This document shows positions 2 through 21,654 of a stretch of 26,070 nt of DNA, piece after piece (the stretch's first letter is position 1; each line of letters begins with the position of its first letter). Both the position numbers and the translations under genes were made by a program. A model generated the notes under the pieces. The model was not told the DNA's origin and ran no database searches. It was given only the letters and a program-made list of their open reading frames with translations. The stretch comes from a virus (Duplodnaviria > Caudoviricetes), in the IMG/VR virus record IMGVR_UViG_3300020044_007772, positions 1 to 26,070 of that record; one strand, 5' to 3'.

Positions 2-2200
2 TCATAGTCTAGCCCTTCTCTTTGTTTTTGCAGACGCCCACATATCGTTAAGCGTTGCCGTGTTGGTCCTGCCCACAATCAATGGGCGCTCACTCGCCAT
101 GACCTTAGGGGCCACTTCGCCCCGCCATGCAATAGCCAGCATTCTAAACGCATCCGCGGGATGCGAACAGTTATGAACTATTGCACCGTTAGACAGCGAA
201 AATTCCTCTGCGTCCGGTACGGTTAGGCACCAAACATCAGATTTTTTATTTAGATTTTTGACGCTCTCGATAACGAGCAGTTGCCTGTTTGTCAGCGCCT
301 CTGTCACGGTACGCTTTAACTTTGCAAGCTGACGAACAATATTTTTGAGCGTGTCCAGATTTACGAACCAATGCTTCAAATTGGTTTTTGCATTCAAGGC
401 ATTCTTTTGGCTCGCGCTTCCACTTTGTCCAACTTTTAGACCGCTCTGCATGGCGCTTATGCCATAATCTTCCGGCGTCTGACTTGTGCCACTCAGCGGC
501 TGAAGTTCTTGCTTCAGCAGTGAATGTTCTTTTCGGCTGTCCAGCAAGAGTTTCGCGAAGATGTATTGCGGCTGGCAAACACTCAAGGTTTCCCAGTCGG
601 TTGTTGTTTTTGTCGCCGTCCCTGTGGTGGATGTGGCAGCCATCTGGAATAATCCCAAATGCTGATTTCCAAACATCCCGGTGCAGGTATTTGCCGCCGC
701 GCTTAAAGTATTTATCGCTTTCCCAAATGCGGTAGAGGCCGCCGTCAAAATATTGCGTGATGGGGTCAAGGAAGACTGGATCACTGTACCCGGCGTCAGG
801 GACGCGGCGGATGTCCACCCTGATTCCGTTTTGAATGTGTGATCCGGCGTACATTTCACCGAAAGACCGTCTTTGAACGCCACTTCCACAAGAAGGGCAT
901 TTTTCCGCGTCACACGCGGGTTGATGTATTGCTTCCAGCCACATGATGTCAGAACTTCCCCGCTATAAGGCAGGTCCATTATCCGATGCGTTCCGTAACG
1001 TGTCAATACCTTTGTGTCGCCCGTAAAGCACCAGTTGTGCTTCGGTGCCGCCCGGAATGCCTTCTTGTCTTCGTCATATTCGCGCTCATACTGGCGCAAT
1101 GCCTCAATGCCTTCGCGGCACTTCAGTTCGTCAAACCATACTTTAGGCAGCGTCATACGCACAGCCTGGATGCCATCTTGTACGCCAAGGTCAGGCACAA
1201 CATTGATGTTGGCTAGACCAAGAAATTCCGCCAACTGTTCAATAACAGACTTACCTTGAGCAGCCAAAGTCTTAGCCCTGGCATCATGCGGCAAATAATG
1301 CTTGCCATAATGGTACGGCTTGTTTGTAACAACGTTTGCAATGTCTTCAATACTTGCGCCGGAAACCGCATAATAGTCGATAACGTGTATCTCATTGCGA
1401 GCCACCTGATACCACCAAATTGCCGTGTCATCCCTAAAGCCCAAGTCCCATGCCGTGTACGTCGGCAGGGCAGGATCATACGGAACTTCGCTAATGCGTC
1501 CTTGGTCCTGCGCCTCGCGCATCTCGACGCCATAGAACGCGCCAAGGATCGCAGCCTCAAAGCTGCATTCGTATTCCTGCATATACTGGTCAGGAGAAAC
1601 CTGAGCCTTGACAGCCTCAAGCTCCGTAAGGGGCAAAATCCCGCTGTCAGTTGCCGTCAGCCTGAGAAGAAACCAGTCCTTCGGACTTAGCTTGGCAGTC
1701 TGGTAAATGTCCCAAAACTGGTTCTTACCCTTCGGAGTGCCGCCAAAAACCGCCCAGCCCTGCTTGTCAGATAACGTAGGGCGAATGACATGACCCCATA
1801 CAGAAGGTCGAAAATCGCCATACTCATCCATAAAAATGCCGTCGAAACCCAAACCACGCATAGCATCGGCATTATCAGCGCCAAACAGACGAATGCGTGC
1901 CCCGGTGAGTAAATCGATCTGCAATTCCGCTTCATTCGCAGCCTTCGTTATCGGTTTGCAAAAACGCTTCAAATAATCCCAGGCCACGCTCTTGGCCTGA
2001 CTGCGGTACGGAGCAATATACCCAAATAACGGATTGGGCGTCTTACACGTCACTGCCGCCCGGATAATGTCATTAACAGCCGCTACCGTCTTGCCCGCAC
2101 GGCGATGGGCAACAAGACATGCCCAACGCTGCGTCCGGTTGTGAAACGGCATGAACGCATCACGAGGCAAATATTCAAGTTTTACTTCTTTTCTTGCCAC
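2..2200 (-). CDS. terL: Terminase large subunit precursor (732 aa, contains an intein; ~445 aa after splicing)
   Basis: Walker A-like HRRAGKT, Walker B IFMDEY, GTPKGKN motif, nuclease motif AWDLG. The C-terminal nuclease motif HNW-CSHPADAFR is rebuilt when residues 391-677 are removed. Directly downstream of TerS. Confidence 0.96.
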   Translation of the reverse strand: MARKEVKLEYLPRDAFMPFHNRTQRWACLVAHRRAGKTVAAVNDIIRAAVTCKTPNPLFGYIAPYRSQAKSVAWDYLKRFCKPITKAANEAELQIDLLTGARIRLFGADNADAMRGLGFDGIFMDEYGDFRPSVWGHVIRPTLSDKQGWAVFGGTPKGKNQFWDIYQTAKLSPKDWFLLRLTATDSGILPLTELEAVKAQVSPDQYMQEYECSFEAAILGAFYGVEMREAQDQGRISEVPYDPALPTYTAWDLGFRDDTAIWWYQVARNEIHVIDYYAVSGASIEDIANVVTNKPYHYGKHYLPHDARAKTLAAQGKSVIEQLAEFLGLANINVVPDLGVQDGIQAVRMTLPKVWFDELKCREGIEALRQYEREYDEDKKAFRAAPKHNWCFTGDTKVLTRYGTHRIMDLPYSGEVLTSCGWKQYINPRVTRKNALLVEVAFKDGLSVKCTPDHTFKTESGWTSAASLTPGTVIQSSLTPSRNILTAASTAFGKAINTLSAAANTCTGMFGNQHLGLFQMAATSTTGTATKTTTDWETLSVCQPQYIFAKLLLDSRKEHSLLKQELQPLSGTSQTPEDYGISAMQSGLKVGQSGSASQKNALNAKTNLKHWFVNLDTLKNIVRQLAKLKRTVTEALTNRQLLVIESVKNLNKKSDVWCLTVPDAEEFSLSNGAIVHNCSHPADAFRMLAIAWRGEVAPKVMASERPLIVGRTNTATLNDMWASAKTKRRARL
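170..1030 (-). mobile_element. Intein in TerL (287 aa, class 1 type, Cys1...His-Asn/Cys+1)
   Basis: Block A CFTGDTKVLT, block B VKCTPDHTF (TxxH), block F DVWCLTVPDAEEFSL, block G NGAIVHN followed by extein Cys. Inserted just before the conserved SHxxDA nuclease motif. The in-frame middle shows no LAGLIDADG or HNH motif. Confidence 0.95.
246..854 (-). CDS. HNH homing endonuclease with C-terminal zinc finger, nested out of frame within the intein (start uncertain: ATG 944, ATG 854 or GTG 818)
   Basis: LHRDVW...IPDGCHIHHRDGDKNNNRLGNLECL is an HNH_3-type motif; CLEC...KYCSSAC is a zinc finger. It has its own TAA at 246-248 and lies in the -1/+2 frame relative to terL. Confidence 0.88.
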   Translation of the reverse strand: MYAGSHIQNGIRVDIRRVPDAGYSDPVFLDPITQYFDGGLYRIWESDKYFKRGGKYLHRDVWKSAFGIIPDGCHIHHRDGDKNNNRLGNLECLPAAIHLRETLAGQPKRTFTAEARTSAAEWHKSDAGRLWHKRHAERSKSWTKWKREPKECLECKNQFEALVRKSGHAQKYCSSACKVKAYRDRGADKQATARYRERQKSK

Positions 2201-13324: not shown

Positions 13325-13504
13325 ATGCCTAACATTGTTATCTGGCTTTTCGGTTTCATCACAGGCGGCAGCATCGTCGCGCTGCTTTTCGCCATTCGGA
13401 AATTGGAGGGTAAATTGACCAAGCATGGGCGTGGTAACTCAGGGGTAGAGAGACATGGAGAGAGCGGGCTTTCGACCGCATTCCATCGGTGTCAGAGGCT
13501 TTGA
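13325..13504 (+). CDS. Possible small membrane protein (59 aa)
   Basis: MPNIVIWLFGFITGGSIVALLFAIRK has a hydrophobic N-terminus; weak RBS. Confidence 0.45.
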   Translation: MPNIVIWLFGFITGGSIVALLFAIRKLEGKLTKHGRGNSGVERHGESGLSTAFHRCQRL

Positions 13505-13511
13505 AAGAACA

Positions 13512-13982
13512 ATGATTATCCTAGGCATAGATCCAGGCTTATCCGGAGCAATGGTGTTCTTGAATACGGCAGACAATACCATTGCCGTAGAAGACATGCC
13601 GACAGTCGAGGTCAAGCGCAACAACAAGCTAAAGCGCGAAGTCAGCCCTCAGCTGGTCGCGGCCATGATTATCAAACGCCATGTGGACGCTGCCTTTCTG
13701 GAAAAGGTCAATGCCATGGCCGGGCAGGGCGTCAGCAGTGTATTCAGCTTTGGCCGCTCTGCTGGGATTATGGAAGGCGTATTGGCGGCGTTTGATATTC
13801 CGACCACGCTCGTCACGCCCCAGGCGTGGCAGAAGGCCATGAATGTCAGGGACGGCAAGGATGGCAGCCGGGAGCGGGCTATGCAGCTATTCCCCGCCAG
13901 CGCCGAGCTATTTCAGCGCAAGAAGGACGATGGGCGGTCTGATGCGGCCCTTATAGCCAAATACGGGGCGCAAACGACATGA
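13512..13982 (+). CDS. ruvC: RuvC-like Holliday junction resolvase
   Basis: ILGIDPG, FLEKV, FSFG, VTPQAWQK and DGRSDAALIA RNase H-fold motifs. Confidence 0.88.
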   Translation: MIILGIDPGLSGAMVFLNTADNTIAVEDMPTVEVKRNNKLKREVSPQLVAAMIIKRHVDAAFLEKVNAMAGQGVSSVFSFGRSAGIMEGVLAAFDIPTTLVTPQAWQKAMNVRDGKDGSRERAMQLFPASAELFQRKKDDGRSDAALIAKYGAQTT

Positions 13983-14134
13983 AATCCATCCGGGTGACAA
14001 TAGATTTTGACGTTGAATACGACGACACTCAGCCTGGTGCGTTTGAGCAGGCTATGAGCATCGTCGATGAATTGCTCAATATTGAGATTGATCTAGACGC
14101 GGTAAAGGTTGTCCAAAGCAGGAGTTATTCCTAA
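13979..14134 (+). CDS. Small acidic hypothetical protein (51 aa); not in the ORF track
   Basis: ATGA overlap with ruvC and TAATG overlap with gcrA; MKSIRVTIDFDVEYDD... Confidence 0.7.
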   Translation: MKSIRVTIDFDVEYDDTQPGAFEQAMSIVDELLNIEIDLDAVKVVQSRSYS

Positions 14135-14556
14135 TGTGGACAAAAGATGTCATTGCCAAGTTGGTAAAGCTGGCCGCGCAAGGGCTTAGTTATACCGAAA
14201 TCGGCAAGGCCCTGGGGATCACCAAGAACGCGGCCATCGGCAAGGCCCGCCGCTTGCGCATTTCCAAGCGCCCTTCAGAGTCTGTCATTAAGCAGCGCAA
14301 GCCCACGCCTAAACCTAAGCAAAAGCCCGCCCCCAAGCCGCCTACGCCGCTAGAAAAGGAAACCATGCTGACGGGCATGAAATTCGTCAGCATGATGGAC
14401 TTGAAAGACAACCATTGCCGTTATCCCATTGACAAAGATGGCAAAACGGTTTTCTGTGGTTTGCCCAAATTTAAGAAGTCGTTCTGCCAGGAGCATGGCG
14501 CTAAGTGCTATATGCCACCTAAGCCATTGCCTCCCCATTCCGGGCGAAGGACTTAG
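14134..14556 (+). CDS. gcrA: GcrA-like cell-cycle transcriptional regulator
   Basis: N-terminal HTH WT...GLSYTEIGKALGITKNAAIGKARRL, Pro/Lys linker, C-terminal L...CRYPI...FCG...FCQEH. Confidence 0.88.
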   Translation: MWTKDVIAKLVKLAAQGLSYTEIGKALGITKNAAIGKARRLRISKRPSESVIKQRKPTPKPKQKPAPKPPTPLEKETMLTGMKFVSMMDLKDNHCRYPIDKDGKTVFCGLPKFKKSFCQEHGAKCYMPPKPLPPHSGRRT

Positions 14557-15049
14557 CCTCCATCTCGACTTCAGCCACCCGCTTGCCCCAGCCTTTGCCA
14601 AACGTGGCCCAGGTCGGCAAAGATTGTAGGAATTCTAATCTACGCTGACTGTAATCTTCGATAAACTCGACCGGATCGGCCCCGCAGATAGCCGCCAAGG
14701 TCTTCGGGCCAAGGCTGCCATCGACCTTCTGATGCAGGACGTACTGGGCCAGCTTGACCGCCCTGCTAGGCCCGGAATTGACCGCGCAATCGAACAGGCA
14801 ATAGTCCACCCCATGCGGCAGGGTATCGCCGTGGATGGCGTCCCAATAGCGGGCTTTATAGACAGGCTGGACGGCATCCTGCGTCAGGGCGCGCATATCC
14901 GCCTCCGACGCTGACTTGCCCGTGTGGGCGTCCCAGACGGCCTTGGTAACGCCCAGATTGGTCATCCCGCCCGGGTCTTTGGGATGGTTCACAAAGCCGC
15001 CTTCGTGCCGGAGCAGGAGGCGCATGGCAAATTCAAAGGTCGATTTCAT
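14519..15049 (-). CDS. Endolysin, glycoside hydrolase family 108 with peptidoglycan-binding C-terminus
   Basis: HEGGFVNHPKDPGGMTNLGVT, FDCAVNSG, DGSLGPKTL and FGKGWGKR motifs. Confidence 0.92.
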   Translation of the reverse strand: MKSTFEFAMRLLLRHEGGFVNHPKDPGGMTNLGVTKAVWDAHTGKSASEADMRALTQDAVQPVYKARYWDAIHGDTLPHGVDYCLFDCAVNSGPSRAVKLAQYVLHQKVDGSLGPKTLAAICGADPVEFIEDYSQRRLEFLQSLPTWATFGKGWGKRVAEVEMEAKSFARNGEAMA

Positions 15050-15303
15050 TTACCCTTCTGCTCCAACAGCATAACGCGAACGTGTAAGTCGTTGATTTCG
15101 CGCTTTAATTCTTCTTTCAGGTTAGCGCGACGTTCAGCGGAAAGCGGGGAGTCCGTGGGGACGCCTTCCTTGGTGATAAGGGCTGGCATAGCCGCTTCAA
15201 CCTTAACCAGCCGCTCGTTGGCCGACGACACTTGCCCCAGCAGCCAAGCCAGCGCCGCGACGATGATCGGGATTACCGCTTTGAGAACGTCTGACCAACC
15301 CAT
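15046..15303 (-). CDS. Membrane-anchored coiled-coil protein of the lysis cassette
   Basis: N-terminal hydrophobic helix; between holin and endolysin; ATGA overlap. Confidence 0.7.
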   Translation of the reverse strand: MGWSDVLKAVIPIIVAALAWLLGQVSSANERLVKVEAAMPALITKEGVPTDSPLSAERRANLKEELKREINDLHVRVMLLEQKGK

Positions 15304-15310
15304 GCCCCAC

Positions 15311-15721
15311 CTATTTCTTGTTCAGGGCTTCAGCAACGGACGGCACAATCTTCTCGACTGACCGGCCAATAACATACCCACCCAGGCCAAGCTGCACGAT
15401 ATCCCACAATTTGAGATACTCAGCTTCCTGCAAGTTAGGCGCAGCAAAGCCAAACCACCGGGCCGTAATCAGGGCCACAAAGACCAGCATGGTGATCGGA
15501 CGCCAGCTAGAGGCCAGAAACCCGCCCGCAGCCTCAGTCTTGATGATGTCAGCCGCGCCCTTGGCAAGGTCGGTCTGGGCAGCCATGACCGCAAGATCGC
15601 CAGCCTGGTACAGGCGCATCAGTTCCAGCTTGGCCGCGTCCTTCTGGGCAGGATCAGGCCAAACGCGGTCAATAACCTTGCCGCCTATATCAAGGGCAGC
15701 CGAGACTGGATCAAAAGCCAT
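15311..15721 (-). CDS. Holin (GTA/3TM holin-like)
   Basis: KVIDRVWPDP...SSWRP, followed by hydrophobic segments and LGGYVIGRSVEK. Confidence 0.85.
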   Translation of the reverse strand: MAFDPVSAALDIGGKVIDRVWPDPAQKDAAKLELMRLYQAGDLAVMAAQTDLAKGAADIIKTEAAGGFLASSWRPITMLVFVALITARWFGFAAPNLQEAEYLKLWDIVQLGLGGYVIGRSVEKIVPSVAEALNKK

Positions 15722-15728
15722 GTGTCAC

Positions 15729-16082
15729 CTACTTCAGGTTAACGAGCTTGTAATGGGTGGTCGAATAGGTCTGCATCAGGTCGTCGATCAGGTTCTCGAT
15801 CATGGTATTCTTCTTGGCAATCTTGTCCCGATTGGTCTGAATCCAGCCCAGTTCCGTACGAACAGTGTTCACAATACGGTCCTTGGGCATCATCATAATC
15901 CGCACTTCGCCAATCAGGCCATAATAGCCCTGGTAAGCCTCTACGATGCTGTCAATCTTGTCGATCAGGTCATCGTAGAACTTACCTAAAGCCTTATGCT
16001 CGCTATAGGATTTGGTCGAAAAGTGCGCCAGATGGGCCGCGTTCCGCATGGCAAAAACGTGGCTAACGAGTTCCTCAATCAT
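15729..16082 (-). CDS. Ferritin/Dps-like four-helix protein (DUF5856-like)
   Basis: HLAHFSTKSYSEHKALGKFYD...DSIVEAYQG...YKL motif. Confidence 0.75.
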   Translation of the reverse strand: MIEELVSHVFAMRNAAHLAHFSTKSYSEHKALGKFYDDLIDKIDSIVEAYQGYYGLIGEVRIMMMPKDRIVNTVRTELGWIQTNRDKIAKKNTMIENLIDDLMQTYSTTHYKLVNLK

Positions 16083-16261
16083 GATTTTGTCACTCCATGC
16101 CCGGCGAGCAGCATCATCATGCCGAGAGCCGCCACGCCAATAAACCAGTAAATCTTCTGAGCAACAGATTTTCCGATCTGCTCATAGACCTTCTCAATAG
16201 CCCGATCTGCCGCGCGTTCGGCAATGGCGTTCATTTCCGCGTCGCTCAAGGGTTCGCTCAT
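16079..16261 (-). CDS. Small membrane protein (60 aa)
   Basis: IAERAADRAIEKVYEQIGKSV followed by a C-terminal transmembrane segment; ATGA overlaps at both ends. Confidence 0.75.
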   Translation of the reverse strand: MSEPLSDAEMNAIAERAADRAIEKVYEQIGKSVAQKIYWFIGVAALGMMMLLAGHGVTKS

Positions 16262-16404
16262 TCGGATGGTGCTTTCTCAGGAGAAAGCTGCGGCTGAACC
16301 TGCTTGCGGATTTCGTTGATGATGCCTTCAACCTGCACAAACGGGGCGTTGCCTAGCGCGGACATGATGACGTTGATCTGTTCAAGAGTAAGGTCGAGAG
16401 TCAT
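16258..16404 (-). CDS. Small conserved tail-associated protein (48 aa); not in the ORF track
   Basis: MTLDLTLEQINVIMSALGNAPFVQVEGIINEIRKQ...; TAATG and ATGA overlaps with both neighbours. Confidence 0.8.
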   Translation of the reverse strand: MTLDLTLEQINVIMSALGNAPFVQVEGIINEIRKQVQPQLSPEKAPSE

Positions 16405-16709
16405 TATTTGCTCCAAGGAAGGGGAAGTGTAACGGCGTCGATCTGGCTGTCCAGATAAGCCTCAACGCCAGCCTGCGGCGTCACGGCCCAAACCCAACCA
16501 AGCACCTGATCCTGTGTAAGATCGGCATAGGGGGTGTATGGCCCGCCCGCCGTGTAGGCCACAGACGTAGTGCCCGGCAGGCCAGCCGTGTTGCCCTGAT
16601 CGTCCGCAGCCGTGCAGAGCCAGTTGACCTGAAACACAACGTCCGTCTGGCCTTCTGCCTTCGGGTAGGCGGGCATACTGGCGATAGTCCATGTGTATGT
16701 GTTGGTCAT
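16404..16709 (-). CDS. Conserved protein downstream of the tail fibre (possible fibre assembly factor)
   Basis: YTWTI...GQTDVVFQVNW...YTPYADLTQDQVLGWV...LPW pattern; coupled to the fibre gene. Confidence 0.75.
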   Translation of the reverse strand: MTNTYTWTIASMPAYPKAEGQTDVVFQVNWLCTAADDQGNTAGLPGTTSVAYTAGGPYTPYADLTQDQVLGWVWAVTPQAGVEAYLDSQIDAVTLPLPWSK

Positions 16710-17845
16710 TAGTTGAGCCTTTCTTCGAGAGCGGCCACGCGGGCCTTGAGGGCTTCGTTTTCGGCGTAAATGGCTTGCTGCCCTGCGACCAGAAGCGGAA
16801 CTATGTCCGTGTAAGACATGCCCTCATCGTTGCTTGCTACAGCCCACGGAAAAACGGCCCTCGCGTCCTCAACAAAGAGGAACGGCCTCAAGGGCGCGTC
16901 TGGGGCGTCCTCTTTGTACCGGCCCAACTCTGCCCGCAGTCCATTGATGCGGGAAATGGGGTCTGTGATTGGTTCAAAGTCGCATTTCAGGCTGCGCAAA
17001 GAGTTTGCTATCCAAGACGTTCCATTAGCCGCGATGTAAACGCCAGCGGTGCCCGGAATGACGTAGAAGAAAGCCGCCGCAGTCGAGATTTGATTGCCAT
17101 TATAATTTGTCGTGCCGTTTGTTGTCGCAGCGAAGCCGGTAGTGGTCGTTAGTGTCCCCGTGAACGTCGGGCTAGCACTCAGCACCATGCTGCCCGTGCC
17201 GGTCACGCTGTTGGAGAGCGTCACGCCGCCGTAGGTGAGAGCCTTACCAACAGTGACGCTTGCAGTTCCAACAACCAGAGTGCTAGACGACGCGCCTTGC
17301 GCGACTGTAAATGGATACAGCGTTCCGTCATTGACGCCAAACATATCGCCGCTGTTGGCGTAGATGCGCCCAGTGCCCGAAGAGGAGCCGGTGCGCGAAA
17401 GGATGATGCAATTATTCGCGCTTGGCGATGTTGCGGTTTGCTCTTGAATTGTCGGGCTAGTCGACAGCACCATATTGCCGGTGCCGGTGACTGCGTTGCT
17501 GAGAGTGACGCCGCCGTAGGTAATAGCCGCGTCAAACGTAGCCGCCCCAACGTGCCTGCTCGTCGTGCCCACCCACAGGGCCTTCTGCATCGAAATGCCG
17601 CCCGCCGTGATGATCGAGCCCGTCGTGGCCGACGTGGCGTCCGTGGTCAGCGTGGATGACACGCCCTGCGCGAACAGGATGCGCGCCGTGGTCGTGGTCT
17701 GCCCGTCCTTCGTGATCGCCGTGGACAGGCCCGTCGCCAGGTCCGCCGTGAGCGCGTTAAACGCCGTGGATGAGATGACCGTGCCAGTGACCACTGGTTG
17801 CCCAGCCGAATTTATGGAAAAAGTTCCACTGCCGTTGTAGCTCAC
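16709..17845 (-). CDS. Tail fibre protein with C-terminal intramolecular chaperone (peptidase S74-like)
   Basis: GTG start with AAGGA RBS; G/T/S-rich shaft; SLRSLK cleavage-like motif; C-terminal YTDIVPLLV...coiled coil. Confidence 0.82.
   Translation of the reverse strand: MSYNGSGTFSINSAGQPVVTGTVISSTAFNALTADLATGLSTAITKDGQTTTTARILFAQGVSSTLTTDATSATTGSIITAGGISMQKALWVGTTSRHVGAATFDAAITYGGVTLSNAVTGTGNMVLSTSPTIQEQTATSPSANNCIILSRTGSSSGTGRIYANSGDMFGVNDGTLYPFTVAQGASSSTLVVGTASVTVGKALTYGGVTLSNSVTGTGSMVLSASPTFTGTLTTTTGFAATTNGTTNYNGNQISTAAAFFYVIPGTAGVYIAANGTSWIANSLRSLKCDFEPITDPISRINGLRAELGRYKEDAPDAPLRPFLFVEDARAVFPWAVASNDEGMSYTDIVPLLVAGQQAIYAENEALKARVAALEERLN
17166..17527 (-). repeat. Two copies of a ~26-aa/77-bp repeat in the tail fibre (17166-17242, 17451-17527)
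   Basis: AITYGGVTLSNAVTGTGNMVLSTSPT versus ALTYGGVTLSNSVTGTGSMVLSASPT. Confidence 0.85.
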
Positions 17846-18498
17846 TTGACTTTCCTTTTCCGTTGTAGTATGGACGGGGCTTCAATCAAGGAGCCCCAAA
17901 TATGTGGTTTAAACACGGTGAATCTTATACCCCTGTTTATCGCGTATGGCTTCAGATGCGAGCCAGATGTAACAACCCCAATGCCGAACATTATGACAGA
18001 TATGGCGGGCGCGGCATCAAGGTTTGTACGCGCTGGGATGATTTTATGGCGTTCAAAGAGGACATGGGCAAGCGACCAAAGGGCTTTACCATTGAGCGCA
18101 TCGACAATTCTAAGGGCTACGGACCTGATAACTGCAAATGGGCTTCTCGAAAGGAGCAGTCCAATAACAGAGACTGCAATGTTCGCATAACCTACAAAGG
18201 TATCACCAAGACCGTCATGCAATGGGCCGAAGAAACCGGGCTTCATCGCAATACTATTAACGGACGCCTTGCCTTGGGCTGGAAGCCCCGCAAAATCTTC
18301 TCCGAGTACAAACAGACCAACCTTACCGGCCTTGCCATTGGCGGCCTTGCAAACGCCATTAGGCAGCAAGCTAGGACGCACTGCAAACACGGGCATGAAT
18401 TTACGCCCGACAATACCGGCAGCCAGACTTCCGCCAAGGGTACGCCGTCCCGCTATTGCAAGGCTTGTAGGCGCAAACGGTGATGCGGGGCGGGTCAT
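17842..18498 (-). CDS. Putative bridging ORF (218 aa) antisense to the HNH gene
   Basis: Starts in an ATGA overlap with the upstream stop (18495-18498) and ends in a GTGA overlap with the fibre start (17842-17845). No recognisable domain; codon-aligned with the HNH gene. Confidence 0.4.
   Translation of the reverse strand: MTRPASPFAPTSLAIAGRRTLGGSLAAGIVGRKFMPVFAVRPSLLPNGVCKAANGKAGKVGLFVLGEDFAGLPAQGKASVNSIAMKPGFFGPLHDGLGDTFVGYANIAVSVIGLLLSRSPFAVIRSVALRIVDALNGKALWSLAHVLFERHKIIPARTNLDAAPAISVIMFGIGVVTSGSHLKPYAINRGIRFTVFKPHIWGSLIEAPSILQRKRKVK
17876..17897 (+). promoter_or_regulatory. Hairpin sequestering the HNH ribosome-binding site
   Basis: GGGGCTTC-AATCAA-GGAGCCCC: 8-bp stem (one G-U pair) whose 3' arm contains GGAG, ending 4 nt before ATG 17902. 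Confidence 0.7.
17902..18483 (+). CDS. Free-standing HNH-family endonuclease, antisense to the late operon
   Basis: W..MRARC.NPN...Y..YGGRGIKVC.RW..F..F..DMG.RP...TIERIDN..GY.P.NC.WA...Q.NN motif; HTH-like segment; C-terminal THCKHGHEFTPDNT...CKAC zinc finger; AAGGAG RBS. Confidence 0.9.
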   Translation: MWFKHGESYTPVYRVWLQMRARCNNPNAEHYDRYGGRGIKVCTRWDDFMAFKEDMGKRPKGFTIERIDNSKGYGPDNCKWASRKEQSNNRDCNVRITYKGITKTVMQWAEETGLHRNTINGRLALGWKPRKIFSEYKQTNLTGLAIGGLANAIRQQARTHCKHGHEFTPDNTGSQTSAKGTPSRYCKACRRKR

Positions 18499-20222
18499 GG
18501 GATGTCTTCGTAGTTGGGGCGCGCAGCCAATGCCGCCGCAAGGGCTCTAGCAATGTCTTCCTTAGACCTTGGTGTGGCTGCGCCCAAGGCCCGCTGGTAT
18601 GGCTTAGACAAAGAAAAGCTACGCGCTAATGGCGCTCCCGCAGTCTGTGCCGCTGTGAGAGCTAGGCCAAATTCAGGACTGCCGGTTCCGAAACCTACAG
18701 CCGCACCAGGGAGCGAGCGAGCAGCAAGGGATGTTAAATCACCAAGCCTGTATGCTGGCATTTTTTCAGGAGCGCCTGTAACTCTTGGAAATGCCAGTCC
18801 AGCTTCTCCGGCAGTTTGAAGACCGCCAGTTAATTTAGCGTCTCCTTTGTCAATGACACGACCTAGCCTTCTGGCGTCAACATTGCCAGTTGCCGGGTTG
18901 AGCGCCTCTTCGACAAAGTAAGACTGGGCAATCTTTGTTCTTGCTTCAGGCCAGAGAATAGCCAAGTCTTTCGGTATATTGGCTGTTGCTGGCGCGTTCT
19001 TAATGCGCCTAGAAAGCATGTTTTCAATAGCCTCTGACGCGGCTCTCTGTGCCTTACCTAGATCGTTCAATTCAGGCTTGTCAGACATAATGTTTTTGGC
19101 TGATTTCTGCCTAAGGACTTTGGTTAATTCTACTGCAGACGTAGAATCGTAAGCGTTGGAAAAAGGTTTAAACGTCAATGATTTTACAAGATTGCTTACT
19201 TCATCATTTTTAACGATATTTTTAAAGTTTTTAGAAAGAGCATTTATAGTTGTTTTTATAGCCGCAATATCTGAGTTGAATATATCGTCAACCGCAGTCC
19301 CTGGAACATTTTTTACGGCTTGATAAATAGAGCCTGCTTTTGCCCGAACATCATTAAGAGATTGCCTAGTAACAATTTCGTCGCTAATTCCTAATTCTTT
19401 TTTGATTAAGTTATTGGTTGCGGATTGGTTTCTAATGTTTGCCGATCGTTCAATTTGCTCCTCGCCGCCAACTTTTGACAGAACATTTGCCATCATGGAC
19501 GGCTTATTTGACGCCATACTAGGCGGGATAGTATAGCCGCCTTCCATTGCCCGCTGCGTTTGCGGCAGTGCCGCGCCGCCGCGAACCATAAATGGAACGC
19601 CACCAACGGCCATGCCGGTAAGATTAGCCGCCAATGGCGGCATACCGGCTTCAGTGCCTGTCTGGGTTGCAGCACCGGCCATGCCACCAGCAAAAGCTTG
19701 CCTTGTTGGCTGCTTTGCCATGACATCAGCAACGTTGCGAGAAACTGGGTTTGCCATCCTAGGGCCAAGTGTCCCTAAAGCCCGTGGCAGAGAACCGCCG
19801 CCCGTAGCTCCGGCAGCGCCCATTTCGACAATACGCTCAATTTGCGTATCTGGCCGTTCTACGCCTGCTACATCAAGACCGCGATTAACAACGTCTCCAA
19901 AAGTTGTGTATCGCGGCGCTCCGAACCGTGGGCCAATAGCGTTATAAGCGGCTCCGCCAAGTTCCTCTATCGTAGTTGCCAAAGCGCCAGCGGCGGCCCC
20001 AGGAATCGCGCCGACACCAGCAAAGGGCGCGCCCGCAGCAGCGCCTAAAGCCGTTCCAGCCGCAATAGGGGCCATGCCGCGTGTAATTGCTCCGACAAGA
20101 CCACCGCCTGTTACTTTTGGTGGTCTGCTCTCCTTAGCCATGACCTTTTCGATCACTGCGTCTGGCGTTCCGTCTGGAAATTCTATTTCCCCGCCATCTG
20201 GTGCTTTAATTATAATTGCCAT
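18495..20222 (-). CDS. Internal virion / DNA ejection protein (575 aa; start moved to ATG 20222)
   Basis: N-terminal IKAPDGGEIEFPDGTPD motif; Gly/Ala-rich hydrophobic segments; third large ORF of a podovirus-type ejection cluster. Confidence 0.7.
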   Translation of the reverse strand: MAIIIKAPDGGEIEFPDGTPDAVIEKVMAKESRPPKVTGGGLVGAITRGMAPIAAGTALGAAAGAPFAGVGAIPGAAAGALATTIEELGGAAYNAIGPRFGAPRYTTFGDVVNRGLDVAGVERPDTQIERIVEMGAAGATGGGSLPRALGTLGPRMANPVSRNVADVMAKQPTRQAFAGGMAGAATQTGTEAGMPPLAANLTGMAVGGVPFMVRGGAALPQTQRAMEGGYTIPPSMASNKPSMMANVLSKVGGEEQIERSANIRNQSATNNLIKKELGISDEIVTRQSLNDVRAKAGSIYQAVKNVPGTAVDDIFNSDIAAIKTTINALSKNFKNIVKNDEVSNLVKSLTFKPFSNAYDSTSAVELTKVLRQKSAKNIMSDKPELNDLGKAQRAASEAIENMLSRRIKNAPATANIPKDLAILWPEARTKIAQSYFVEEALNPATGNVDARRLGRVIDKGDAKLTGGLQTAGEAGLAFPRVTGAPEKMPAYRLGDLTSLAARSLPGAAVGFGTGSPEFGLALTAAQTAGAPLARSFSLSKPYQRALGAATPRSKEDIARALAAALAARPNYEDIP

Positions 20223-20223
20223 G

Positions 20224-21654
20224 CTAATACACCACTTTCCCGGTTGCCGGGTCGTACCTTCCACGCCTAGTTGTTCCAGATGATGTACTGGGGGCGGCAC
20301 CGGGCTTTCCAACGGGTTTGCCGTTGTTATCTACAATTTTGTAAATTTCTTCGTCTAATCTTTTTAGATTTCGGTCAAGCTGATCGTCAGTGGTGCTTTG
20401 TTCTAAGTCACCGACAACCGCTTGAAGTAATTTGTTCTCAAAGTCGGATACCGGGCCAAGCGCCGCCCCAGTTGGAGAAGCTGCCCGCATTTTCTGCAAT
20501 TTATCAAAGCCAACATTAGCTTTAATTGTTGTCAACAATCCTGACAAAACTCTACTTTGCGTTCCCGGTATGCCCTTAGTGGCGGAGCCAATAATTCCAG
20601 TAACAGGCATTTCAGATTTTTTCATAATAGAACGAGCGTTAGCTATATCGCTTCTAACTATAGATGAAGCGGTGCTTGCGTTAGAGGCTGCCTCGCGAGA
20701 TGAAGCTTCTGTAGTTTCTTTTTCCACATACGCCTTGCCGCCCTGAAACGGGATGGCAATGGGCGCGCCGCGCGCGTCAAGTACGATACTATTATTTGGG
20801 CCGCGCTGCCAAACAAGTCCTTCTCCTGGTTCTCCGTAATTAACGCCAGTTGGGCCGACGTTTACATTGGTTGTTGGCCGCTTACCTTCTGACTGCGCCG
20901 CCAGCCATACTGGGAAGGGCCTTTTTTCCCCGCCCAATACAGCAAACTTATAATTTGTTATATCCGTAGTTTCATCCGCGTCCGCCGCAGGCACAGCAAA
21001 CCTTTGCCCGTAAGTCGGAGAATTGGGATTACTGTCAATCATGCCATTTGCACCGGCGGCGACCATCTTAGGCTGGTCGCGCTCTCTCTCAGCCTCAATC
21101 CGAGCCCGCGCGCCAGTTGCCATCCTTGCCATGTATGGGTTGCCAGACAGTTCATATTCATCAAGCATACGATTTTGTTCTTCGTATGAACGCGGAGTGG
21201 CGGGCAAATTGTAATTAATGTCGCCCATCTTGAGAGCGGCAATAAGCGGGTTTTGCTTAGGCGCGGCTTCTGGGAATTCAGAATTTACGTTAGGCGTATA
21301 GTCTGGTTGAACACCCTTAAGATTAAATTCCTGCCCCGGCAGCGTGGCCGTTTCACCAGGCTTTTCATACAAAGCAGAGCGAGCGTCCAACGCCTCTGCG
21401 CGAGACGCCTTATCCAGCGCCGCAGCATCGCGTTCCGCCTTGCCCGACAGGTACGCCCCGCCAAAGCTGGTCAGGGCCTTGGCAAGAGCGCCGTAGGGCG
21501 AGACGGGGGCGGTAATGCCGCCAGCCGTGGAGACGGGCATTTCCTGCTGGGACATTTCAATGAGCATGTCGGCCAGCTTCTTCTGGCGGGCAAGCTCTGC
21601 CGCGCGGGAAGTGTAATCGCCTTCAAGCGGAGAAGACAAACTTATGTTTACCAT
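20224..21654 (-). CDS. Internal virion / DNA ejection protein (476 aa)
   Basis: Position in the cluster; C-terminal IKANVGFDKLQKMR..SPTGAALGPVS..E...LQ motif seen in such proteins. Confidence 0.7.
   Translation of the reverse strand: MVNISLSSPLEGDYTSRAAELARQKKLADMLIEMSQQEMPVSTAGGITAPVSPYGALAKALTSFGGAYLSGKAERDAAALDKASRAEALDARSALYEKPGETATLPGQEFNLKGVQPDYTPNVNSEFPEAAPKQNPLIAALKMGDINYNLPATPRSYEEQNRMLDEYELSGNPYMARMATGARARIEAERERDQPKMVAAGANGMIDSNPNSPTYGQRFAVPAADADETTDITNYKFAVLGGEKRPFPVWLAAQSEGKRPTTNVNVGPTGVNYGEPGEGLVWQRGPNNSIVLDARGAPIAIPFQGGKAYVEKETTEASSREAASNASTASSIVRSDIANARSIMKKSEMPVTGIIGSATKGIPGTQSRVLSGLLTTIKANVGFDKLQKMRAASPTGAALGPVSDFENKLLQAVVGDLEQSTTDDQLDRNLKRLDEEIYKIVDNNGKPVGKPGAAPSTSSGTTRRGRYDPATGKVVY

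Follow-up and report, generated by a model that had tools for sequence, protein, structure and literature searches.

Untranslated stretches of bacterial operons invite Rho termination and decay, and antisense ORFs occur in insertion sequences such as IS5. In T4-type phages, segD is a free-standing homing endonuclease gene that is located antisense between genes 23 and 24 (PMC2988022). The seg and mob genes of these phages resemble the insert described here in being optional endonuclease genes between conserved virion genes with no intron, and segD also lies backward in the late region. The longest opposite frame over the 223-codon segD covers 79 codons. In the sections of that paper dealing with segD, terminators flank the gene and a promoter for it has not been identified, whereas at the present locus the opposite frame is kept open and a promoter-like site is conserved.

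The window analyzed here is a 26,070-nt (26-kb) piece of the genome of an uncultured tailed phage, with an overall GC of about 0.55. Its minus strand carries tail, virion, holin, and endolysin genes from 26059 to 14519 (Pfam/PHROGs), and plus-strand replication and recombination genes run convergently toward these late genes. The final plus-strand gene (14134-14556) encodes a GcrA-like regulator (PF07750, E 2e-18) and has a 38-nt tail-to-tail overlap with the 3' end of the endolysin gene; the presence of this GcrA homologue suggests an alphaproteobacterial host. No RNA polymerase was found among the 29 window proteins scanned (26 kb of genome). The terminase large subunit gene (2-2200, minus strand), which is cut by the window edge, encodes an intein-like domain (PF14890, residues 432-677). 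The nuclease gene lies antisense between co-oriented operon genes, as a noncontiguous operon requires (Table 1). Because neither flanking protein matched Pfam or PHROGs, the labels "ejection" and "tail fibre" are presumed from position and architecture. The neighbor 5' of the presumed ejection gene matched phrog_2534 (E 3e-5). A tblastn search of the fibre N-terminus against 50,697 records returned one weak phage match, annotated as a collagen-repeat protein, and no cultured relative of the fibre gene. Within the presumed ejection gene, GC falls to 0.38 at 19001-19500, which suggests a swapped-in segment.

Table 1. Features at the insert junction and in the adjoining late operon.
Feature	Position	Strand	Remarks
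Upstream operon gene, presumed ejection protein	18495..20312	-	ORF as listed; true start probably ATG near 20222
First six bridge codons, MTRPAS	18481..18498	-	Sixth codon is the reverse complement of the nuclease stop; ATGA overlap with upstream stop
HNH-like endonuclease gene, family A	17902..18483	+	193 aa; no TTA/CTA/TCA; phrog_3377 "HNH endonuclease", E 2e-53
Bridge ORF	17842..18498	-	218 codons; codon-aligned antisense to endonuclease gene; openness conserved, residues not
Endonuclease RBS	17888..17893	+	AAGGAG; from sequence
Predicted sigma-70-type nuclease promoter	17846..17874	+	TTGACT-17 nt-TATGGA; consensus match only; head-on to operon
Degenerate 17-nt copy (82%) of fibre codons 2-7	17852..17868		Between -35 and -10; direct repeat of 17824-17840
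Fibre RBS	17850..17857	-	Purine-rich, AAGGAAAG; from sequence; inside bridge
Downstream operon gene, presumed tail fibre	16709..17845	-	GTG start; conserved N-terminus MSYNGSG
Genes 3' of fibre, including holin and endolysin	14519..16709	-	Pfam/PHROGs; polarity would harm them

An earlier note on this DNA had described a long stop-free minus-strand ORF spanning the insert, codon-aligned with the nuclease gene and joined to both neighbors by exact 4-nt overlaps, and all of this was confirmed from the sequence. This bridge ORF shares ATGA with the upstream gene, its ATG (18496-98) running into that gene's TGA, and GTGA with the fibre gene, whose GTG meets the bridge TGA (17842-44); it is in codon register with the plus-strand gene (offset 60). 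The remaining two minus-strand frames contain 9 and 15 stops over the same stretch. The bridge protein matched no Pfam or PHROG family. The nuclease gene contains seven Leu and eight Ser codons, none of which is TTA, CTA, or TCA; the probability of this absence is 0.10 on window codon usage and 0.076 on GC3-matched relatives. With antisense open runs of up to 187 codons over other genes of the window as well, the window locus alone proves little. The earlier caveat that a codon-aligned frame of this kind may arise by chance thus holds for the single locus, but chance is excluded across the relatives. Contigs from four public sequencing runs cover the insert, which is therefore no assembly artefact, and among the 29 variants listed in the nuclease gene from these runs, none creates TTA, CTA, or TCA. 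A joint in run X2 that bypasses the insert was left out of account, as one of its sides spans only 24 letters.

The designation of the insert as an HNH gene is borne out by its PHROG match, but Arg66, at the end of the first beta strand, stands where HNH enzymes have the catalytic His, so that family A is not canonical HNH. This Arg was present in 14/14 family A site genes (those at the fibre junction) and in 78/96 others, and Arg66, Tyr73, and Asn77 were invariant in 69 aligned relatives. The predicted parts of the protein include a beta-beta-alpha-metal domain, a helix-turn-helix-like middle, and a C-terminal Cys/His motif. The structure model (pLDDT 92) best matched PacI (3m7k), with a middling Z of 6.2 and an rmsd of 4.2 over 78 residues; a Foldseek match to I-HmuI was likewise weak (E 0.55), with nothing at E 0.001, and profiles of families A and B searched against the sequences of solved structures returned nothing useful. 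PacI is placed in group 20 of the His-Me finger nucleases, with a Tyr replacing the His (PMC5714182). Family A is like PacI in lacking the His, and its invariant Tyr73 may stand in for that residue; the C-terminal domains differ. As far as the model indicates, family A is probably of the PacI type in its mode of action, with DNA-binding parts appended. A search with the nuclease gave 1,000 matches. The window gene belongs to a very common phage family, "YGGRGI", which PHROGs labels as HNH; with its Arg for the catalytic His, invariant Tyr, and PacI-resembling model, it may be a large family of Tyr-dependent nucleases. The endonuclease ORF lies outside any intron or intein. A group I or group II intron with an antisense endonuclease was rejected, given that no Rfam match at gathering score was found in the window and that the insert has too little non-coding sequence, with only about 70 nt outside the gene.

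Nuclease and fibre N-terminus queries, together with one DNA pattern and two alignments, gave about 600 loci. A backward endonuclease gene was located just upstream of the fibre gene in 13 of 80 fibre loci, comprising six of family A, to which the window gene belongs, and seven of family B (Pfam HNH_3), which is unrelated to family A, retains the catalytic His, and passes HNH_3. The rest were insert-free, and the insert is thus optional, with empty alleles among related phages. Dereplication at 95% identity left 35 distinct inserts at the junction (34 plus a longer one, L233), and the codon-aligned opposite frame was open over at least 90% of the gene in 30 of these, with open bridge lengths kept at 190-300 codons. 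The five unbridged inserts were L004, L009, L382, L565, and L233; three of them have long upstream gaps, L565 has no such gap, and no operon-strand promoter or terminator accounting for the five was found. Six junction inserts fetched from metagenomes after the pattern was seen all contained zero stops. Family A site genes were spread over branches of 0.5-1.4 changes per column in a quick tree that included 25 of the non-site family A genes. They may nevertheless share one origin, and the independent origins shown are therefore two or three, not thirty. In L101, about 25 nt ahead of a family B insert (2350-2380) match the 3' flank of family A inserts of the L090 type, which suggests that one element took the place of the other there. 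At the same junction in the clade with MARNG-type fibres (L528, L539, L590, L550, L555, L585, L588, and L592, upstream of 2501), other cargo is often found: backward ORFs that are short and hydrophobic, hairpins resembling terminators, or a co-oriented ferritin-like gene.

Nucleases lying backward away from this junction had an opposite frame at least 90% open in 7 of 16 cases, vs. 7 of 83 co-oriented ones (P 0.001, GC3 not matched). In GC-rich loci the orientation of non-site genes could not be trusted to automatic calling, and the 16 are those kept as truly backward after re-reading by eye, which is subjective. A second backward endonuclease of a third type (HNH_3 plus AP2) was identified in the lysis cassette of L002 (1315-1881). 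Its aligned opposite frame spans 157 codons, and two stops lie near the end away from the overlap of that frame with the next gene. Backward endonucleases with long open opposite frames were also observed at other operon sites in unrelated phages (L415:2360-3160, L327:2231-2878, L407:1946-2887, L395:2345-2956, and L301:2189-3061), and the one in L415 has a 4-nt overlap with its upstream gene. The earlier note had held that common stops in the antisense frame of homologous inserts would speak against bridging; such stops are uncommon at the junction, where 30/35 are open, and more frequent at other sites, where only 7/16 are. Together with the unbridged segD of T4, this indicates that bridging is common, not obligatory.

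The avoidance of TTA, CTA, and TCA that the earlier note had proposed for homologous antisense inserts was found in two unrelated nuclease families. Codon rates were compared between 26 site and 180 non-site genes, and they are somewhat flattering because L382, L565, L233, and the metagenome loci are not yet included as site genes. In family A, TTA made up 2/35 of TTR codons at the site vs. 177/295 elsewhere, CTA 2/114 vs. 85/494 of CTN, and TCA 4/94 vs. 168/581 of TCN; the corresponding values for family B were 1/55 vs. 149/277, 1/59 vs. 92/521, and 6/78 vs. 126/467. After dereplication at 95%, five such codons were observed where 39.7 were expected in 11 family A site genes, and eight where 56.9 were expected in 12 family B site genes, whereas co-oriented relatives showed 210 vs. 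145 and 175 vs. 128. With one gene per 70% cluster, three site genes added, and the expectation drawn from flanking genes, the counts were 8 vs. 32.7 (P 3e-7) and 2 vs. 23.0 (P 3e-8). The aligned antisense frame of site genes contained 0.3 stops per 100 codons, vs. 4-6.5 in the other two antisense frames. Frames at least 90% open were found in 24/26 site genes vs. 29/180 others, and at GC3 under 0.5 in 13/13 vs. 2/82. In 11 disjoint site pairs, third-position differences in TCN and CTN codons involved A in 1/22 cases, vs. 126/272 in other fourfold boxes (P 6e-5); A was involved in 6/7 such TCN/CTN differences in four non-site pairs. Because homologous antisense inserts avoid these codons, the opposite frame has almost certainly been selected to stay open, as read from the codons.

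It is scarcely credible that these frames are a product of chance, or of a codon or tRNA preference of the nucleases unrelated to the opposite strand, although the window locus is itself compatible with chance and some non-site relatives (the 29/180 above) are open as well. The depletion is limited to the three stop-complement codons and is also seen in low-GC members (GC3 0.26-0.4), where GC3-matched rates gave 4 observed vs. 42.8 expected, with 3 vs. 19.0 and 3 vs. 18.5 in the further comparisons. Other A-ending codons are mildly lower in family A (ACA 0.18 vs. 0.29) and equal or higher in family B, flanking genes use TTA, CTA, and TCA normally, and family B tolerates TCA precisely where a relay frame covers the stop. 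A functional bridge protein, such as a nuclease inhibitor or a new virion protein, is likewise very improbable. The conserved length and the coupled start would fit one, and Tha of S. aureus phages has an inhibitor encoded by a small antisense overlapping gene, according to the part of PMC11087260 concerned with that pair. However, nuclease third codon positions are bridge first positions in this alignment, and they diverge as freely as in non-site pairs. Between the window and L001, dN was 0.096, dS 1.21, and omega 0.08, with 79 third-position differences, and the bridge was 55% identical where the nuclease was 85%. Over the site pairs, bridge identity was 43-63% where nuclease identity was 74-85%; omega of the nuclease was 0.07-0.30 in the other site pairs where computable, overlapping the 0.06-0.19 of non-site pairs, and dS was mostly above 1 in distant site pairs, so that synonymous sites are near saturation. 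The two unrelated families also have unrelated bridge sequences, with no Pfam or PHROG match. Purifying selection on the antisense protein sequence was not detected, whereas stops were purged from the antisense frame. As synonymous sites are near saturation and the bridge protein drifts, it is openness, not the product, that is under selection on this sequence evidence; the frame stayed open while its residues were rewritten.

The MTRPAS at the window junction is likely a decayed old fibre start. At the same place L001 has LSYNGS and L444 has MSRNGS, each in the bridge frame with its sixth codon doubling as the nuclease stop, and family B inserts retain ATGAGTTAC out of frame. The element, we infer, entered the fibre gene a few codons past its start codon, which would leave the old start in front and supply a new RBS and start behind. 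At the downstream end, fibre starts reading xTG-AGY were found at 80/114 junctions, and since such a start itself provides TGA, the GTGA overlap comes automatically; all 31 of the 89 insert-free junctions with a 4-nt overlap have it. The bridge end is set by the first stop beyond the nuclease start and lies between 27 nt inside the fibre gene and 37 nt short of its start (-27 to +37) in relatives. The view that the exact 4-nt overlaps are the real signal, and that both would be kept in homologous inserts, therefore did not survive for the downstream GTGA, which is automatic and not conserved; the upstream overlap is likely inherited from the old fibre start, and what stood is that an upstream start is kept in frame. 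In the junction table, the fibre start of L005 was set by hand, L090 reads -11, and the chains listed for L001 and L444 are artificial, owing to the upstream-gene calls. In L082-L085, L087, L088, and L094, just upstream of 3001, an insert-free junction with a 37-nt gap keeps a MTRPAS-type start that opens an 11-12 codon mini-frame ending by the fibre RBS; these junctions are either the pre-insertion allele or deletion scars.

An in-frame ATG exactly -4, -1, or 0 of the upstream stop was present in 12 of the 17 open family A loci with the upstream gene in view, and these starts persist despite nuclease-stop spacings of 2, 6, 11, 14, 15, and 47 nt. Two more open family A loci use the retained old fibre start with its RBS, and L194 has an open bridge with no start near the upstream stop. 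Entry into the bridge does look to be under selection. Stops within the first 45 nt were found in seven loci (L113, L120, L124, L364, L369, L371, and L353), all of which have a relay frame of 14-25 codons that runs from the old start, covers the stops, and ends on or beside the bridge ATG; in five of the seven the relay frame overlaps the bridge start as ATGA, and L364 does so too by reading of the locus. Six of the seven loci are related, the ATG goes back to a conserved His codon, and the chain test is lenient, as an 8-codon window contains a start codon 40% of the time; the relay frames are therefore supporting, not decisive.

The -35 box of the predicted nuclease promoter abuts the fibre start codon in the window and most relatives, and 12 of the 14 filled loci examined have their best sigma-70-like match on the nuclease strand beginning 5-10 nt away from the fibre start. 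Nuclease-strand promoter scores were 8-11 of 12 matches in filled loci and 6-9 in 26 insert-free loci, and the predicted promoter of L090 reads TTGACA-16-TATAAC. Scanning 13500-21000 for promoters and terminators turned up no more of them than shuffled sequence allows; the scan missed the predicted nuclease promoter, whose -10 box is without the last T. The 17-nt copy between the two boxes is possibly a duplication relic or, speculatively, an autorepression operator, as it recalls the I-TevI operator mentioned in the account of PMC2988022.

The reading we prefer, and hold to be likely from the arrangement of these loci, is that bridge translation protects the late transcript through the head-on gene, to the benefit of fibre and lysis gene expression. 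On leaving the upstream gene, ribosomes would translate straight over the 650-nt insert, and where stops survive near the beginning of the bridge, a short frame from the old start would hand over via an ATGA overlap. The endonuclease element would carry its own head-on promoter, and the translated bridge would shield the host RNA polymerase, which is assumed to transcribe the late operon, from Rho, help it win head-on collisions, and protect the message, keeping the late transcript intact to the fibre and lysis genes; the bridge peptide would be junk. In E. coli, long transcripts rose 6.5-fold once the removal of a stop let an ORF run antisense across a convergent gene, in the experiments at issue here (10.1101/2020.09.23.310730). 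With 169 C and 169 G, the insert is not rich in C on its operon strand and is thus no obvious Rho substrate. This lack of a C-over-G skew counts against transcript protection, as do the five unbridged inserts, the limited openness at other sites, and the missing nearby start in L194.

Strict translational coupling, in which the bridge hands ribosomes to the fibre start for re-initiation and does not protect transcription, is unlikely. It would account for the entry being kept in frame or relayed, for all 30 open bridges finishing within about 40 nt of the fibre start, for the 35 of 89 insert-free junctions that overlap by 4 or 1 nt, and for the second insert in L002 finishing in an ATGA overlap on the next gene. 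The bridge end, however, varies with the first stop past the nuclease start, 54 of the 89 insert-free junctions have no overlap, and the fibre gene has its own purine-rich site, as the earlier note had recognized at the window locus (17850..17857), in nearly all loci. That the bridge mainly silences the nuclease late in infection, with a ribosome-coupled late polymerase overrunning the head-on promoter and gene, is improbable. Such a role would suit a promoter-like site that adjoins the fibre start in most filled loci, the repression of the convergent gene in the same E. coli construct by about 6-fold (protein) and 38-fold (RNA) within the data considered (10.1101/2020.09.23.310730), and the way antisense nesting turns genes off in S. 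aureus phages, in the part of the work on that switch (PMC11087260). Silencing is compatible with transcript protection and not exclusive of it, lost fibre and lysis expression is the more direct cost, and unbridged inserts have promoter matches just as good.

Transcript protection by the bridge is part of a wider picture that we consider probable: selfish genes are made harmless by backward insertion plus a translated, product-less opposite frame, with relay mini-frames where needed, an arrangement that would have had at least two, and probably three, separate origins in these phages, each in a different nuclease family, and whose signature is the absence of TTA, CTA, and TCA. If this is true, it is a further route beside RNA splicing, protein splicing, and ribosome bypass, in which the host operon is read through the parasite, and the absence of the three codons would mark genome-wide which backward genes lie inside translated operons. 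It would also explain backward mobile genes sitting in phage late operons without an intron. The window locus adds the convergence of two unrelated families on one site, members with low GC, relay frames, an origin for the overlaps, and a test that speaks directly against selection on the protein. A reading frame would here be selected for being translated, and not for its protein, over 200 codons and with near-saturated synonymous change. To the question of whether long prokaryotic antisense ORFs are noise or genes, a testable answer would be that some are neither; such bridge "hypothetical proteins" would then be a warning to annotation, as they are not products, and the arrangement may offer a design rule, taken from nature, for placing antisense cargo in engineered operons without polarity.

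A search of the main texts of openly available papers returned no description of selected, product-less bridging frames. In the noncontiguous operon tha/ith of S. aureus phage 80alpha, an antisense gene is nested in an operon as it is here, with its own promoter there and a predicted one here; in the passages of that paper on tha/ith, the pair shows RNA-level mutual repression and a functional small protein, whereas the stop-free, product-less frame of the window goes unmentioned in them (PMC11087260). Bacterial antisense overlapping genes and shadow ORFs resemble the bridge in being long codon-aligned antisense ORFs over a gene, and in the portion of the literature on them at hand they are argued to be protein-functional or GC artefacts (PMC7457138); the openness of the bridge, in contrast, is selected without residue selection and is also seen at low GC. 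The engineered stop-less "interfering ORF", an antisense ORF through a convergent gene, raises polymerase processivity through ribosome coupling in the experiments described (O'Connor, Bordoy, Chatterjee, 10.1101/2020.09.23.310730). That construct is synthetic and was made in E. coli, whereas the arrangement in the window is natural and appears to be maintained by selection.
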